From Escherichia coli (GTDB lineage: Bacteria; Pseudomonadota; Gammaproteobacteria; Enterobacterales; Enterobacteriaceae), in NCBI RefSeq assembly GCF_003334815.1, contig NZ_QOWO01000029.1: a stretch of DNA of 52,109 nucleotides; one strand, written 5' to 3'. The first letter of the stretch is position 1. Every line of letters begins with the position of its first letter. A model generated the notes under the pieces. That model was given only the letters and a program-made list of their open reading frames with translations, was not told where the DNA came from and ran no database searches. This document shows positions 1 to 34,923 of this stretch, piece by piece. Made by a program: the position numbers and the translations under genes.

Positions 1-75
1 CGCGAGGCATCGTCTTAACGAGGCACCGAGGCGTCGCATTCTTCAGATGGTTCAACCCTTAAGTTAGCGCTTATG
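1..75. mobile_element. Probable right terminus of an IS186 copy (IS4 family), truncated by the window edge
   Basis: Positions 49-75 read ggttcaacccttaagttagcgcttatg, the reverse complement of the IS186 terminal inverted repeat as I remember it (CATAAGCGCTAACTTAAGGGTTG...). An IS186 next to entD is the K-12 arrangement. Recalled, not aligned. Confidence 0.5.
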
Positions 76-185
76 GGAGTAATCCCCGCATATCCGGTTG
101 TCAGGTCAGGATGGTAAGGCACCTGCTTTACACTTTCGCCCGTGGTCAGTGATGGCTGCGGGCGAATCGTACCAGATGTTGTCAA

Positions 186-806: not shown

Positions 807-842
807 ATCGACCATATTCGAGACTGATGACAAACGCAAAAC

Positions 843-871
843 TGCCTGATGCGCTACGCTTATCAGGCCTA
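843..871. repeat. REP (palindromic unit), first half of a BIME between fepA and entD
   Basis: Imperfect palindrome gcctgatgcgctacgcttatcaggcctac, typical of E. coli REP elements. Confidence 0.65.
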
Positions 872-907
872 CATGGTCCTGCAATATATTGAATTGGCAA
901 GATTTTT

Positions 908-8780: not shown

Positions 8781-8818
8781 AAACCCATAATTACAGAAAA
8801 TAATTATGGGTTTTTTAT
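8781..8818 (+). terminator. Rho-independent terminator downstream of entF
   Basis: Hairpin aaacccataatta / taattatgggttt followed by a T-run. Confidence 0.7.
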
Positions 8819-8980
8819 TTGTTTGATTTATAGGTTTGATGAATATTTCTCTTAAATAGAGTGAATGTTGCATTCAGTGGAAGGAATTTACAAACTTCAG
8901 CTTCGGATAATTATCACCAACTGGTAAAGTGAGCGCCGTGGAGATTTCCCCCTATTGGACTCATTTTCAGGTTATACCCC

Positions 8981-10114
8981 ATGTCATCACTGAATATTAA
9001 ACAGGGAAGTGACGCTCATTTTCCCGATTATCCTCTGGCGTCGCCCAGTAATAATGAAATTGATTTACTTAATCTAATCTCAGTTTTATGGCGGGCCAAA
9101 AAAACGGTCATGGCGGTCGTTTTTGCGTTTGCCTGCGCAGGCTTGCTGATCTCTTTCATCCTGCCGCAAAAATGGACCAGCGCGGCGGTTGTCACGCCTC
9201 CAGAACCTGTTCAGTGGCAAGAGTTGGAGAAATCATTCACTAAGCTTCGTGTGCTGGATCTGGATATCAAAATTGATCGTACAGAAGCATTTAACCTGTT
9301 TATCAAGAAGTTTCAGTCGGTTAGCTTGCTGGAAGAGTACCTGCGTTCATCACCTTATGTGATGGACCAATTAAAAGAGGCGAAAATCGACGAACTGGAT
9401 TTGCATCGCGCAATTGTCGCATTGAGCGAAAAAATGAAAGCGGTTGATGACAATGCCAGTAAGAAAAAAGATGAACCGTCACTGTATACCTCCTGGACGC
9501 TAAGTTTTACCGCGCCAACCAGTGAAGAGGCGCAGACCGTTTTGAGCGGGTATATCGATTATATCTCTACGTTGGTGGTGAAAGAGTCGCTAGAAAACGT
9601 CCGTAATAAACTGGAGATCAAAACCCAGTTTGAAAAAGAAAAACTGGCTCAGGATCGCATTAAAACGAAAAATCAACTTGATGCAAACATTCAGCGCCTC
9701 AATTATTCACTCGACATTGCCAACGCGGCAGGAATTAAAAAGCTCGTTTACAGTAATGGTCAGGCCGTTAAAGATGACCCCGATTTTTCTATTTCTCTCG
9801 GTGCAGACGGTATTGAACGCAAACTGGAAATAGAAAAAGCGGTCACTGACGTTGCGGAACTGAACGGTGAATTACGTAATCGGCAGTATCTTGTCGAGCA
9901 ATTAACAAAAGCACATGTCAACGATGTGAATTTTACGCCGTTTAAATATCAGTTAAGCCCGTCATTGCCAGTGAAAAAAGACGGTCCGGGTAAGGCGATT
10001 ATTGTGATCCTTTCCGCGTTGATCGGCGGGATGGTGGCTTGTGGTGGCGTGCTGTTGCGCTATGCGATGGCATCCAGAAAACAGGATGCCATGATGGCAG
10101 ACCACTTAGTTTAA
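8981..10114 (+). CDS. fepE: Wzz-like polysaccharide co-polymerase family protein (377 aa)
   Basis: Track ORF of the expected length and position, with an N-terminal transmembrane segment. Confidence 0.85.
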   Translation: MSSLNIKQGSDAHFPDYPLASPSNNEIDLLNLISVLWRAKKTVMAVVFAFACAGLLISFILPQKWTSAAVVTPPEPVQWQELEKSFTKLRVLDLDIKIDRTEAFNLFIKKFQSVSLLEEYLRSSPYVMDQLKEAKIDELDLHRAIVALSEKMKAVDDNASKKKDEPSLYTSWTLSFTAPTSEEAQTVLSGYIDYISTLVVKESLENVRNKLEIKTQFEKEKLAQDRIKTKNQLDANIQRLNYSLDIANAAGIKKLVYSNGQAVKDDPDFSISLGADGIERKLEIEKAVTDVAELNGELRNRQYLVEQLTKAHVNDVNFTPFKYQLSPSLPVKKDGPGKAIIVILSALIGGMVACGGVLLRYAMASRKQDAMMADHLV

Positions 10115-10926
10115 CTATTTGCGGTTGAAGGTGCCGTTCGTCCGAGCGGCACCACAAGCGGCGTTCCGGCAACTGGATCGTCAATGATCATGCAGCGCAG
10201 ACCATAAATGCGCTCAATCAGTTCAGCAGTGACAATCTCCTTCGGCGCTCCCTGAGCAACAATTTTCCCTTCCCGCAATGCAATCAAATGGCTGGCGTAA
10301 CGACAGGCCTGATTAAGATCGTGCAGCACCGCCGCCAGGGTATAGCCTTTTTCGCGGTTCAGTTCGCTTAACAACTCCAGCAAATCAATCTGATGACTGA
10401 TATCCAGCCAGGTCGTGGGTTCGTCGAGCAGCATAATTGCCGTTTCCTGGGCCAGCACCATCGCGATCCACGCTCGCTGGCGTTGTCCGCCAGAAAGGGT
10501 ATCCACGCTTTGATCTGCCAGATGAGTTATTCCCGTGGCCTGCATTGCTTTCGTTACCGCTTCTTCATCCTCTTTGCGCCAGCGGGTAAACAGCGGTTGA
10601 TGCGGATAACGTCCACGCGCCACCAGCTCCTGCACGGTGATATCGCCCGGCGTGGTAGCATTTTGCGCCAACAGACCAATCCGGCGTGCAACCTCTTTAC
10701 TGGCGTAATGTTGAATGTGCTCGCCATCCAGCCAGACATGCCCATGAGCAGGCGTCATCAGGCGGCTTAAGGTACGCAGTAACGTGGATTTACCGCAGCC
10801 ATTTGGCCCGATAATTGCCGTGAAGTGACCATCAGGTATTTCTACAGTCAGATTTTCCGCAACGGTATATTTGCCATATCCCAGGGTTAACTGTTCGCCG
10901 CGCAAACGGGCTACTGATTCGGTCAT
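10111..10926 (-). CDS. fepC: Ferric enterobactin ABC transporter ATPase (271 aa)
   Basis: Walker A GPNGCGKST and ABC signature LSGGQRQR. Start placed at MTESVARLRGEQL. Its stop overlaps the convergent fepE stop. Confidence 0.92.
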   Translation of the reverse strand: MTESVARLRGEQLTLGYGKYTVAENLTVEIPDGHFTAIIGPNGCGKSTLLRTLSRLMTPAHGHVWLDGEHIQHYASKEVARRIGLLAQNATTPGDITVQELVARGRYPHQPLFTRWRKEDEEAVTKAMQATGITHLADQSVDTLSGGQRQRAWIAMVLAQETAIMLLDEPTTWLDISHQIDLLELLSELNREKGYTLAAVLHDLNQACRYASHLIALREGKIVAQGAPKEIVTAELIERIYGLRCMIIDDPVAGTPLVVPLGRTAPSTANS

Positions 10927-13026: not shown

Positions 13027-14277
13027 ATGAATAAACAATCCTGGCTGCTTAACCTCAGCCTGTTGAAAACGCACCCGGCGTTTCGCGCAGTATTCCTCGC
13101 TCGTTTCATCTCAATTGTGTCTCTGGGTTTGCTCGGCGTCGCGGTGCCGGTGCAGATCCAGATGATGACACATTCCACCTGGCAGGTGGGGCTTTCGGTG
13201 ACGCTGACCGGCGGCGCGATGTTTGTTGGCCTGATGGTCGGCGGTGTGCTGGCGGATCGCTATGAGCGCAAAAAAGTGATTTTGCTGGCGCGCGGCACCT
13301 GTGGCATTGGCTTCATTGGACTGTGCCTTAATGCACTGCTGCCGGAGCCGTCATTGCTGGCAATCTATTTACTTGGTTTATGGGATGGTTTTTTCGCATC
13401 GCTTGGCGTTACGGCGCTATTGGCGGCGACACCAGCACTGGTAGGGCGTGAAAACTTAATGCAGGCCGGGGCGATCACCATGTTGACCGTGCGTCTGGGG
13501 TCGGTGATTTCGCCCATGATTGGCGGTTTATTGCTGGCGACCGGTGGCGTAGCCTGGAACTACGGGCTGGCGGCGGCGGGCACGTTTATTACCTTGCTAC
13601 CGTTGTTAAGCCTTCCGGCGTTGCCACCGCCACCGCAGCCGCGTGAGCATCCGTTGAAATCATTACTGGCAGGATTTCGTTTTCTGCTTGCCAGCCCGCT
13701 GGTGGGCGGGATTGCGCTGCTGGGTGGTTTATTGACGATGGCGAGCGCGGTGCGGGTACTGTATCCGGCGCTGGCTGACAACTGGCAGATGTCAGCGGCA
13801 CAGATTGGTTTTCTCTACGCGGCGATCCCGCTCGGCGCGGCTATTGGTGCGTTAACCAGCGGGAAGCTGGCACATAGTGCGCGACCAGGGTTATTGATGC
13901 TGCTCTCCACGCTGGGATCGTTCCTCGCCATTGGTCTGTTTGGCCTGATGCCGATGTGGATTTTAGGCGTGGTTTGTCTGGCGCTGTTCGGCTGGTTGAG
14001 TGCGGTCAGCTCGTTGCTGCAATACACAATGCTGCAAACGCAAACCCCGGAAGCGATGTTAGGGCGGATTAACGGTTTGTGGACGGCGCAGAACGTGACG
14101 GGCGATGCCATAGGCGCGGCGCTGCTGGGTGGTTTGGGCGCGATGATGACACCGGTTGCTTCCGCAAGCGCGAGCGGTTTTGGTTTGTTGATTATCGGCG
14201 TGTTGTTATTGCTGGTGCTGGTGGAGTTGCGACATTTTCGCCAGACGCCGCCGCAGGTGACAGCGTCCGACAGTTAA
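13027..14277 (+). CDS. entS: Enterobactin exporter, MFS transporter (416 aa)
   Basis: Twelve-helix-like hydrophobic ORF in the expected position and length. Confidence 0.9.
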
Positions 14278-14280
14278 TGC

Positions 14281-15237
14281 TTAAAACAGCGCCTTAAGCC
14301 TATCCAGCACTTGCATGGCGCTGTAGTAATCCAGACGGAACGTCTCGGTTCCCAGCGCATAAACCTGCTTGTTTTGTACTGCAGGCAGGTGCGCGAGCAG
14401 CGGATTAGCATAAATAGCATCGGCATCTTTCTGATCACCGGCGAACAGGAATAGTGACTCGCCATTTAACCCTGCAGCCAGATTTTCCCCACCAAGCTGA
14501 ATGATGTCATGGCGTTTACCCTGACTTTGGCTGGCATTTAACCCTGCGGGTAACTTCGCCAGCGTAAAGCCGAGTTGTTCCAGCATCTGCCCTTGTGCTG
14601 ATTCTGGCGTCCAGAGATTGGCACTGTGTGCAGCGGCAGTATAGACAATGGCAGTGACCGGCTGCGGCGGTAATTTGATTTGCTCTTTCGCCGCCGCCAG
14701 TTGCTTATCAAACTGCGCAATCCGCTCTGCCGCTTGTTTCTCATGCCCGGTAATTTCGCCAAGTTGCGTTAACAGCGACTGCCAGCTTTTGTCGTCGTAA
14801 TTGATGATTAATGTCGGGGCGATGGTGGAAAGCTGATCATACAGTGCCAGCGCCGAATCCCCGCCGGTTGCGCTAATTAAAATCAGATCCGGCATTTGCG
14901 CGGCAACGGCTTCGGCGCTCGGTTCGCCGATATAGAGCCGTTGCAGTTTGCGTTCTTTCGCCACCTTGCTCCACTGGCGTAAAAAGCCCTGGTCATCCGC
15001 GACGCGGTTATTCGGCGTGGTCGCGCCGCTGGCGATCACCGGAGCATCAATCGCCAGCAGTGAGCCGGTCAGGGTGACGCTGGTGGAAACAATACGCTGC
15101 GGCTGGCTTTCCAGTGTATGTGTGCCACGGCTGTCAGTAATCTGACGCGGCCAGTCAGCGGCCTGAACTGCGGCTATTCCTGAAAGCAAAAGTCCTGTTA
15201 ATAGAAGGGCGTTGCGGTAGAGCGGGGCGAGTCTCAC
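14281..15237 (-). CDS. fepB: Periplasmic ferric enterobactin binding protein (318 aa)
   Basis: Signal peptide followed by a periplasmic binding protein fold. Only 3 nt separate it from the convergent entS stop. Confidence 0.9.
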
Positions 15238-32814: not shown

Positions 32815-34053
32815 ATGAAAGCATTGACTTATCACGGCCCACATCACGTTCAGGTAGAAAATGTTCCCGATCCGGGCGTTGAACAGGCAGATGATATTAT
32901 TCTGCGTATTACGGCAACGGCGATCTGTGGCTCTGACCTCCATCTTTATCGAGGCAAAATACCTCAGGTTAAACATGGCGATATTTTTGGTCATGAATTT
33001 ATGGGGGAAGTAGTTGAAACCGGAAAGGACGTAAAAAATTTGCAAAAAGGCGACCGAGTGGTAATTCCGTTCGTCATTGCTTGTGGCGACTGTTTTTTCT
33101 GTCGATTGCAACAATATGCCGCCTGCGAAAATACCAATGCGGGTAAAGGCGCTGCGCTCAATAAAAAACAGATACCAGCTCCAGCGGCATTGTTTGGTTA
33201 TAGTCACCTGTATGGCGGCGTTCCTGGTGGGCAGGCGGAATATGTCCGCGTCCCTAAAGGGAATGTGGGGCCGTTTAAAGTACCGCCTTTGCTTTCAGAT
33301 GATAAAGCGCTTTTCCTTTCTGATATTCTGCCAACGGCATGGCAGGCAGCAAAAAATGCGCAGATCCAACAAGGTTCAAGCGTTGCAGTCTATGGTGCTG
33401 GTCCTGTGGGATTGTTGACAATCGCCTGTGCACGGTTGCTCGGTGCGGAACAGATTTTTGTTGTTGATCATCATCCCTACCGCTTGCATTTCGCCGCCGA
33501 CCGCTACGGCGCGATCCCGATTAATTTTGATGAAGACAGCGATCCGGCACAGTCAATTATTGAACAAACGGCAGGTCACCGGGGCGTGGATGCAGTAATA
33601 GACGCCGTCGGTTTTGAAGCGAAAGGCAGCACCACGGAAACGGTGCTGACTAACCTGAAACTGGAGGGCAGCAGCGGTAAAGCGTTGCGTCAGTGTATTG
33701 CGGCGGTCAGGCGTGGCGGCATTGTTAGCGTACCGGGCGTCTACGCTGGATTTATTCACGGTTTCCTGTTTGGCGACGCCTTTGATAAAGGGTTGTCGTT
33801 TAAAATGGGACAGACCCACGTTCACGCATGGCTGGGAGAATTATTACCGTTAATTGAGAAAGGATTACTGAAACCAGAAGAAATTGTTACCCACTATATG
33901 CCGTTTGAAGAGGCCGCCCGGGGATATGAGATTTTCGAAAAACGTGAAGAGGAGTGCCGTAAGGTGATTCTGGTACCCGGTGCACAAAGCGCAGAGGCGG
34001 CGCAGAAGGCGGTTTCAGGTCTGGTGAATGCGATGCCGGGGGGAACAATATGA
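32815..34053 (+). CDS. ybdR: Zn-dependent medium-chain alcohol dehydrogenase-like oxidoreductase (412 aa)
   Basis: GHEFMGEV zinc-ligand motif, Cys cluster CGDCFFC and NAD site GAGPVGL. Confidence 0.9.
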
Positions 34054-34056
34054 TCG

Positions 34057-34146
34057 TCAGGAGTGGTTTTCGAGGTAAAGGACAGCCATGACGATAATCG
34101 CCGCCATAATCAGAAATCCTATCAGGATGTAAAATGCTTCTGCCAT
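34057..34146 (-). CDS. Candidate 29-aa single-pass membrane peptide (hypothetical)
   Basis: ATG at 34146, MAEAFYILIGFLIMAAIIVMAVLYLENHS, one hydrophobic helix, weak SD-like gggaat upstream. Unsupported by homology here. Confidence 0.25.
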   Translation of the reverse strand: MAEAFYILIGFLIMAAIIVMAVLYLENHS

Positions 34147-34694: not shown

Positions 34695-34923
34695 TTTTAC
34701 TCCATGTCGTCGGTGCTGCGAGTGTCGCAGATAAACATACCCAAAAGAAAACCCTCACCGTCAGGCGGCGAGGGTTTAACTCACATGATGATACTGACTG
34801 TTGCTCACTCTTTGAAGTGATTTGCGTCACATTCAGGGAATTCCTCAATGCAGCGCATTATGTATAAATCTTAATCGCCTTGGTTTATGGAAGACGAATT
34901 AGCGTGTTTTGTAAATCAGATGA

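Follow-up and report, generated by a model that had tools for sequence, protein, structure and literature searches.

Introduction

Convergent overlaps of the TTAA type, and the problem that they pose for termination, were already described in 2007: where two convergent coding sequences overlap, a Rho-independent terminator necessarily falls within the coding sequence of the partner (Lillo and Krakauer 2007, PMC2174442). Escherichia coli was found to contain 58 convergent overlaps, the possible 4-nt tetramers being TTAA, CTAA, CTAG and TTAG, and Rho-independent terminators were predicted inside the partner for 20% of its convergently overlapping genes (PMC2174442). A separate count gives 704 convergent pairs in E. 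coli; once the REP-associated pairs and the 383 pairs retained for a positive distance within REP range are set aside, no more than 114 remain (bioRxiv 10.64898/2026.03.23.713779).

Canonical bidirectional intrinsic terminators end two convergent transcription units, and need a spacer of 40–100 nt in which a GC-rich palindrome is flanked by A/T runs. Overlapping bidirectional terminators, said to have been described between convergent genes by Ju and colleagues in 2019, reportedly consist of single stem-loops in the spacer. In an excludon, a long antisense transcript covers a neighbour of opposing function and expression of the two is reciprocal. 3′ ends that depend on Rho have a stable stem-loop but no U tract; some of them lie inside a downstream coding region, and the sequence beyond contains more C than G. 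Transcription itself terminates at sites still further along, from which PNPase and RNase II shorten the RNA as far as the stem (Dar and Sorek 2018, PMC6061677).

Here we compare these systems with convergent gene pairs in a 52,109-nt stretch of E. coli DNA (the window), where stop codons on opposite strands overlap, touch or lie a few nucleotides apart.

Results

Convergent junctions of the ent/fep region

The window is a K-12-like ent/fep region with 9 mismatches to MG1655 in the 35.7 kb compared, and its coordinates equal the NC_000913.3 position minus 609273. Its genes run in the order entD-fepA-fes-entF-fepE / fepCGD / entS / fepB / entCEBAH-cstA-ybdD / hcxA / ybdL / ybdM and on to lipA-ybeF; gene names and ends, as given by direct reading and the list of open reading frames (ORFs), match the MG1655 RefSeq annotation. 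Nine convergent junctions are complete within the window, with gaps of −4, 3, 9, 0, 120, 3, 40, 53 and 100 nt. The original prediction had singled out three gene pairs with shared or touching stops, and reading, ORF list and annotation agree on all of them: fepE and fepC share TTAA, entS and fepB are separated by 3 nt, and the stops of ybdL and ybdM abut with a gap of 0. The coding sequences and stop codons at the tight junctions are as follows.

8981–10114, + strand: fepE, that is wzz(fepE), coding sequence (ORF list, annotation)
10111–10926, − strand: fepC coding sequence (annotation)
10111–10114, both strands: TTAA, the overlapping stops of fepE (TAA, 10112–10114, +) and fepC (TTA, 10111–10113, −)
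14275–14283, both strands: entS stop TAA (14275–14277), a 3-nt gap ATG and fepB stop TTA (14281–14283) (reading, ORF list, annotation)
23104–23118, both strands: ybdD stop (23104–23106, +), a 9-nt gap and hcxA stop (23116–23118, −), the fourth tight junction
25471–25476, both strands: TAGCTA, the abutting stops of ybdL (TAG, 25471–25473, +) and ybdM (CTA, 25474–25476, −), gap 0
34051–34059, both strands: ybdR stop TGA (+), a 3-nt gap and yldA stop TCA (−), the fifth tight junction

Two of these junctions, ybdD/hcxA (9 nt) and ybdR/yldA (3 nt), had been overlooked in the original prediction. The fepE/fepC pair belongs to the class of convergent 4-nt stop overlaps, its genes lying on opposite strands with 3′ ends that overlap by TTAA, whereas entS/fepB (gap 3) and ybdL/ybdM (gap 0) come close to that class but lack the overlap (PMC2174442).

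Tight spacing of this kind is frequent in the E. coli genome. We sampled eight evenly spaced 50-kb stretches of MG1655 (400 kb) and, from the RefSeq annotation, collected convergent junctions between coding sequences, leaving aside pseudogenes and nested genes. The gap was at most 3 nt at 11 of 53 junctions (21%), and the two genes overlapped at 9 of the 53. Five junctions overlapped by 4 nt, in every case with the sequence TTAA, which is the expected 4-nt form because TGA is excluded from such overlaps and TAG is rare. These frequencies agree in order of magnitude with the published counts (58 overlaps; 704 pairs, at most 114 in the remaining class). Within the window, gaps of at most 3 nt occur at 4 of 9 junctions (binomial P = 0.096 and Fisher P = 0.13 against the sample) and gaps of at most 9 nt at 5 of 9 (Fisher P = 0.055). 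The window is thus at most mildly enriched for tight junctions, and the pattern is a genuine one that belongs to a common class.

Terminators and embedded stem-loops

The four roomy junctions of the window (ahpF/uspG, dpiA/dcuC, cspE/crcB and tatE/lipA) each carry a terminator hairpin. All eight of their gene ends have a hairpin of −13.5 to −21 kcal/mol within 70 nt past the stop, with at least five T in the next 8 nt at six of them, and at three of the four junctions a shared palindrome forms a classical bidirectional terminator. The tight junctions have in common with the canonical elements at dpiA/dcuC, cspE/crcB and tatE/lipA the role of ending two convergent transcription units, but they have neither a spacer nor a U tract. 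A scan of the RNA downstream of the stops found no canonical hairpin-plus-U-tract terminator at any of the six named gene ends, and Rfam returned no family at any junction.

What the six ends do have is a stable stem-loop with no U tract behind it; it starts 6–41 nt past the stop, folds with −15.8 to −24.3 kcal/mol and lies within the C-terminal codons of the partner. These predicted stem-loops are listed here with their position relative to the stop codon.

10121–10162, + strand: fepE stem-loop, +7 to +48, in the last fepC codons; −24.3 kcal/mol, z = −4.2
10063–10099, − strand: fepC stem-loop, +12 to +48, in the last fepE codons; −15.9 kcal/mol, z = −3.9
14240–14271, − strand: fepB 13-bp stem-loop, +10 to +41, in the codons of the variable EntS C-terminal tail; −21.5 kcal/mol, no U tract
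14318–14358, + strand: entS stem-loop, +41 to +81, in the 3′ codons of fepB; −15.8 kcal/mol, z = −2.5, no U tract
25500–25536, + strand: ybdL stem-loop, +27 to +63, inside ybdM; −16.1 kcal/mol, with the weak tail TTGCTTCA
25440–25468, − strand: ybdM stem-loop, +6 to +34, in the last ybdL codons; −17.2 kcal/mol, z = −1.9, no U tract
Predicted bases of the stem-loops: 10061 (fepC), 10163 (fepE), 14239 (fepB), 14359 (entS), 25537 (ybdL) and 25439 (ybdM)

The core of the fepE stem-loop pairs GGTGCCGTTCG with CGAGCGGCACC and is followed by the tail GTTCCGGC; the arms of the fepC stem-loop are ATGGCATCC and GGATGCCAT, and neither structure leads into a U tract. Two of the six stem-loops were confirmed as inverted repeats. 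The z-scores were obtained from shuffles, and those of single hairpins are inflated because each window was picked as the local optimum; statistically, the ybdM (z = −1.9) and entS (z = −2.5) stems are the weakest. The fepB stem-loop uses G-U pairs and is specific to one strand, folding with −21.5 kcal/mol as − strand RNA and −10 kcal/mol as + strand RNA, which indicates a role in the fepB RNA rather than a palindrome in the DNA.

Each of the six ends thus places a GC-rich stem-loop within about 70 nt of the stop, as an intrinsic terminator would, but the 7–8-nt U tract does not follow: the 8 nt that follow the six best stems (GTTCCGGC, TAGCGCAA, GAAAATGT, ATAAACCT, TTGCTTCA and AACGTCGA) hold 1–4 T, against 4–6 at unambiguous controls in the window. 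The earlier claim that these junctions leave no room for terminators is therefore partly right, since canonical terminators are indeed absent from the six ends, but stable stem-loops find their place in the C-terminal codons of the partner.

Could these hairpins nevertheless be leaky Rho-independent terminators that lie in coding sequence? Such elements are predicted for the 20% of convergently overlapping E. coli genes noted above (PMC2174442), and isolated details of the window would suit them: the 37-nt ybdL stem-loop is followed by TTGCTTCA, the loop region of the fepC hairpin contains TGTTTTC, and a −14 kcal/mol stem ends in TTTTAAGC at the stop of fepB itself. Only this last, own-end stem of fepB additionally fits a loose terminator pattern. 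However, a loose hairpin-plus-T scan returns 170 matches per 104 kb of strand, which is background density, so that loose matches carry no weight; a simple terminator scan likewise gave many matches at a background rate. The ybdL hairpin at +27 to +63 occurs at the background frequency of such scans and was rejected as a terminator. Stems straddling the fepB, ybdL and ybdD stops were discarded for the same reason, and at stop-straddling stems the tail criterion is near-automatic because the region around a stop codon is T-rich. Stems within a gene's own translated codons would, in addition, lie under the terminating ribosome. With the T-poor tails of the six best stems also against it, weak intrinsic termination is a highly improbable explanation, and the missing U tracts distinguish the embedded stem-loops from the convergent overlaps with predicted terminators (PMC2174442).

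The placement of structure just past the stop extends beyond the named pairs. We took 30 gene ends at tight junctions from the window and the 400-kb MG1655 sample, with partners of at least 420 nt, and compared the best 40-nt fold in two parts of the same read-through RNA. The median was −14.7 kcal/mol at +1 to +80 and −10.3 kcal/mol at +161 to +400; the near region was the more structured one at 25 of the 30 ends (Wilcoxon P = 4e-5), with a GC content of 0.534 near and 0.515 far. In MG1655, where a junction is roomy, the gene's own 3′ coding end is not additionally structured. Embedded structure close to tight stops is thus enriched in general, and this comparison of near with far downstream RNA is the robust signal.

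Read-through and probable Rho-dependent termination

Gaps of −4, 3 and 0 nt force the termination signals inside the partner, so that every transcript of the three named pairs must cover tens of nucleotides of its partner, or more, in antisense; the original prediction likewise had each side run into the opposing gene. Its further expectation, that termination would occur within coding sequence, finds support in published Rho termination about 460 nt inside hcxA and 130–510 nt inside the partner at three analogous junctions. The region in the window is the following.

23563 (MG1655 632836), + strand: Rho termination region antisense to ybdH, that is hcxA; Rho score 8.4, P = 1.3e-17 (Adams et al. 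2021, PMC7815308, Supplementary file 2)

By comparison of coordinates with the published tables, this bicyclomycin-sensitive region lies about 457 nt past the ybdD stop (PMC7815308). At tight junctions elsewhere in the genome, Rho regions are located 441 nt into lysA from galR, 134 nt into ygeA from lysR and 511 nt into dpaA from yafJ, and a Term-seq 3′ end is recorded 769 nt past modC, antisense to ybhA (PMC7815308). The four Rho examples are about as many as 1078 regions would yield at random (approximately 0.09 per gene end), and since their number is near chance they serve as an illustration and not as an enrichment.

The ent/fep genes are repressed by iron in the media used for the published maps, and missing entries are expected because the six genes are iron-repressed or weakly expressed in LB and M63. 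Searched by gene name and by coordinate, the Term-seq and Rho tables for LB and M63 contain no entry at the six named 3′ ends, and their sole fepB entry is a 3′ end in the fepB 5′ leader (Adams et al. 2021). The SMRT-Cappable-seq supplements likewise contain nothing for fepE, fepC, entS, fepB, ybdL or ybdM, and a literature search on fepE/fepC transcripts or terminators found nothing on point.

The composition of the read-through RNA is compatible with Rho. Over the 300 nt downstream of the stop, the C/G ratio is 1.55 for fepB, 1.43 for fepC, 1.24 for fepE, 1.20 for ybdM, 1.13 for ybdL and 1.12 for entS, against an average of 1.08 for the antisense strand of all coding sequences in the window. 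The untranslated downstream RNA is thus C-rich and G-poor, as at Rho-type ends, marginally so for entS, ybdL and ybdM, whose ratios (1.1–1.2) are barely above the average. A stem-loop without a U tract after the stop, an excess of C over G downstream and, at hcxA, a bicyclomycin-sensitive antisense region in the window itself are all features of the described Rho-dependent 3′ ends, from which the named junctions differ in that their Rho dependence and exonuclease trimming are predicted and the C/G excess of entS, ybdL and ybdM is modest (Dar and Sorek 2018).

The same geometry might be read in terms of collision-driven bidirectional termination, in which the flanking stem-loops pause the polymerases, and head-on collisions rather than Rho set the 3′ ends. 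Because entS and fepB are both iron-regulated and are induced together by iron limitation, traffic at that junction would be dense in both directions; for fepE and for ybdL/ybdM, a strong co-induced partner is not evident. Stem-loops without U tracts do flank every named junction on both sides, and a collision model with a requirement for stem-loops has been described for convergent E. coli genes (bioRxiv 10.1101/2022.10.23.513370). The resemblance to overlapping bidirectional terminators extends to the convergent genes, the stem-loops without good U tracts and the possible head-on collisions, but those elements are reported to be Rho-independent and to consist of a single stem in the spacer, whereas the window has two stems in coding sequence and no spacer (Ju et al. 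2019; Wang et al. 2022 preprint). No single stem-loop is shared by both transcripts at the named junctions; separate hairpins, 20–80 nt apart, stand on either side, and that of fepB forms on one strand only. Moreover, read-through at ybdD/hcxA, the only tight window junction with data, is sensitive to bicyclomycin. We therefore regard collision as the main determinant of these 3′ ends as unlikely.

Comparison across species

Loci of species representatives were fetched by way of EntE, and the stop codons were located by tblastn with in-frame extension. The −4 gap between fepE and fepC is confined to E. coli and E. albertii, with 36–185 nt in the other loci compared: an Escherichia relative (L005) has a 36-nt spacer with a perfect terminator palindrome, and Citrobacter and other genera have 45–185 nt. 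Of 5426 complete E. coli genomes, 5409 carry the TTAA junction sequence. The hairpin-carrying spacer of the relative has 0 matches in the 5426 complete E. coli genomes, and its interpretation as a polymorphism of E. coli was rejected. FepC is conserved up to ...VVPLGR and continues in a variable tail, of which the Escherichia version, the Escherichia-specific TAPSTANS (last 8 codons), is the longest seen; this tail supplies one arm of the stem at 10130–10153. A tail of this kind agrees with a shift of the stop codon, the accepted origin of convergent overlaps.

Spacing is also labile between entS and fepB, where gaps between −28 and +599 nt occur and 18 of 34 sequences (17 of 33 species loci and the window) have at most 3 nt. 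EntS is conserved up to ...RRFRQ, beyond which the tail is free. An equivalent of the fepB stem-loop, within about 50 nt past the fepB stop and inside the EntS tail, was found in 17 of the 18 tight species cases, and its sequence differs among Escherichia, Serratia, Pantoea, Pseudescherichia and others. Across the 18 tight cases, the fold after fepB has a median of −23.2 kcal/mol, compared with −11.4 kcal/mol further in (P = 7.6e-6, a value that overstates independence because the species are related). The entS stem-loop has weaker cross-species support (P = 0.017).

The ybdL/ybdM junction behaves differently from these two, with a gap of 0 in 7 of 8 species from four genera and with the stop pairs TAGCTA, TAGTTA, TGATTA and TAATTA. 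Both YbdL and YbdM are conserved to the final residue, and the conserved C-termini of the two proteins suffice to explain the fixed gap. The stem downstream of ybdL is kept in Escherichia and Citrobacter and lost in Kluyvera and Pseudocitrobacter; with covariation on one side only and loss in two genera, the claim that this hairpin is conserved by structure was dropped.

A compensation rule, by which extra structure would occur in the 3′ coding end only where the spacer is missing, was also considered. Across species, tight and roomy cases are similar (P = 0.28), and in MG1655 the rule applies, weakly, to a gene's own end (P = 0.03); a strict compensation rule at the ent/fep locus is not supported.

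These comparisons also bear on an excludon-type reading, according to which the tight spacing was selected so that transcribing one gene depresses the other, either because polymerases collide or because RNase III cleaves the overlapping 3′ duplex. The paired ent/fep genes respond to the same iron signal. Geometry alone makes the transcripts overlap by at least tens of nucleotides, and the ybdL/ybdM gap has stayed at 0 in 7 of 8 species and four genera despite changing stop codons, as selection on spacing would predict; the conserved YbdL and YbdM C-termini can account for this on their own. Against such selection, the class makes up 21% of convergent junctions, the spacing of fepE/fepC and entS/fepB varies among relatives from overlap to hundreds of nucleotides, and stem-loops close to the stop, together with Rho, would keep any stable overlap short. 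Unlike the neighbours of opposing function in an excludon, the paired genes belong by annotation to the same pathway, and under a common signal their mutual repression would have no obvious logic. An excludon-type function is accordingly very unlikely.

The special or regulatory arrangement implied by the original prediction is not supported: about one in five convergent junctions is alike, the spacing is labile at two of the three junctions, and the pattern is in the literature (PMC2174442). The tight junctions are not a special regulatory device.

Discussion

The reading that we consider likely is that these are ordinary compact junctions at which transcription enters the partner, Rho most likely ends it, and the embedded stem-loops most likely set the 3′ ends, so that the antisense overlap stays short. 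We infer this mechanism for the named three by analogy, the published data being those for ybdD/hcxA and for the three analogous junctions elsewhere. In the proposed sequence of events, the ribosome would be released at the stop codon, while RNA polymerase would proceed into the partner and produce untranslated antisense RNA with more C than G. Rho would load on this RNA and terminate transcription some 100–500 nt inside the partner, after which 3′-to-5′ exonucleases would trim the RNA back to the U-less stem-loop that starts 6–41 nt past the stop, making this the steady-state 3′ end. The mature mRNAs would then overlap in antisense by only about 70–120 nt. With co-induced partners such as entS and fepB, polymerases meeting head-on may contribute to termination as well.

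Tight junctions of this kind probably arise as stop codons drift in loosely constrained C-terminal tails, while a terminator-bearing spacer may appear or disappear. TAPSTANS in FepC and the EntS residues beyond ...RRFRQ would be tails of this kind. We further suggest, tentatively and with rather more doubt than confidence, that the EntS tail (its last ~10 codons, which carry the fepB 3′ stem-loop) is shaped mainly by the need for structure in the RNA of the opposite strand, such that lineages without a spacer rebuild a stem of their own at that site, and that E. coli protein tails at tight junctions, with the partner's 3′ stem-loop in their last codons, are dual-coding more generally.

An oddity of the raw sequence thus comes down to routine packing of the E. 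coli genome with a known solution, Rho termination with stem-loops that may lie within coding sequence. The phenomenon is known and carries little weight as a discovery; a modest general result is that stem-loops are enriched within the 80 nt that follow the stops of tight convergent genes. In annotation and engineering, the last codons of fepC, fepE and entS should be expected to serve twice, as coding sequence and as the structure at the end of the neighbour's transcript. Since these C-terminal codons would double as the 3′ structure of the partner, a tag, deletion or recoding placed there could alter the stability of the opposing mRNA.

Sequence context of the window

The window is closely related to MG1655, the E. 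coli K-12 reference, without being MG1655 itself, since nine positions differ across the first 35.7 kb. It begins within the right end of an IS186B element, which occupies 608007-609351 in MG1655. Four Rfam matches scored above the gathering threshold, and two REP-like palindromes were also located.

Window 1-78: right end of IS186B
Window 834-874: REP-like palindrome GGCCTGATAAGCGTAGCGCATCAGGC, close to the entD end
Window 865-906, minus strand: ES036 (Rfam)
Window 22846-22875: REP-like palindrome GCCGGATAAGGCGTTCACGCCGCATCCGGC, between cstA and ybdD
Window 29434-29527, plus strand: sRNA STnc70, upstream of dsbG/ahpC (Rfam)
Window 34740-34848, minus strand: rnk leader (Rfam)
Window 47834-48276, plus strand: cspA-type thermoregulator 5′ UTR, spanning cspE (Rfam)

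Stem–loops and spacers at the convergent junctions

A very stable stem–loop (−23.2 kcal/mol) fills the final 15 codons of ybdD, a small gene, and terminates 2 nt short of the last base of the ybdD stop. Its complement forms the stem–loop found at +13 to +55 past the stop of the facing gene, hcxA.

Window 23060-23104: stem–loop at the end of ybdD

Among relatives, GCCGGATG-type sequences lie inside the wider entS/fepB, fepE/fepC and ybdD/hcxA spacers of Citrobacter and other genera. The gaps between facing stops computed for three loci are less reliable. In Phytobacter massiliensis (L026), EntS ends in an unrelated 28-residue sequence, probably through a frameshift or an assembly error, and the fepC matches of L023 and L034 extend through an in-frame stop.

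Variation in fepE

Each of the best nine E. coli matches listed below the top one (H2-H10) covers a stretch longer than the query by about 777 bp. In H2, the sole genome inspected among them, an IS1 element breaks wzz(fepE) into two pseudogene pieces and leaves the fepC junction intact. Locus L005 (strain SCPM-O-B-8794), labelled E. coli, carries a fepE with only 77% identity to that of K-12, and its 36-nt fepE/fepC spacer contains a perfect bidirectional terminator.

L002 (NZ_AP027759.1) 582-2492: IS1-split wzz(fepE), equivalent to window about 8981-10114
L005 1329-1370: bidirectional terminator, AAATGGAGCGC..GCGCTCCATTTTTT

This spacer sequence was found in none of the 5426 complete E. coli genomes searched; L005 may thus represent a separate Escherichia species, or else its fepE may have been imported.

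The entF–fepE spacer

entF and fepE are separated by a 215-nt spacer, which contains a perfect, AT-rich, 13-bp palindrome; sequence scans also place a promoter-like site nearby.

Window 8781-8813: palindrome AAACCCATAATTA...TAATTATGGGTTT, then TTTTATTTG, terminator-like on both strands
Window 8887-8914: promoter-like site

The palindrome looks like a terminator on either strand, which suggests that entF and fepE do not simply share one transcript.
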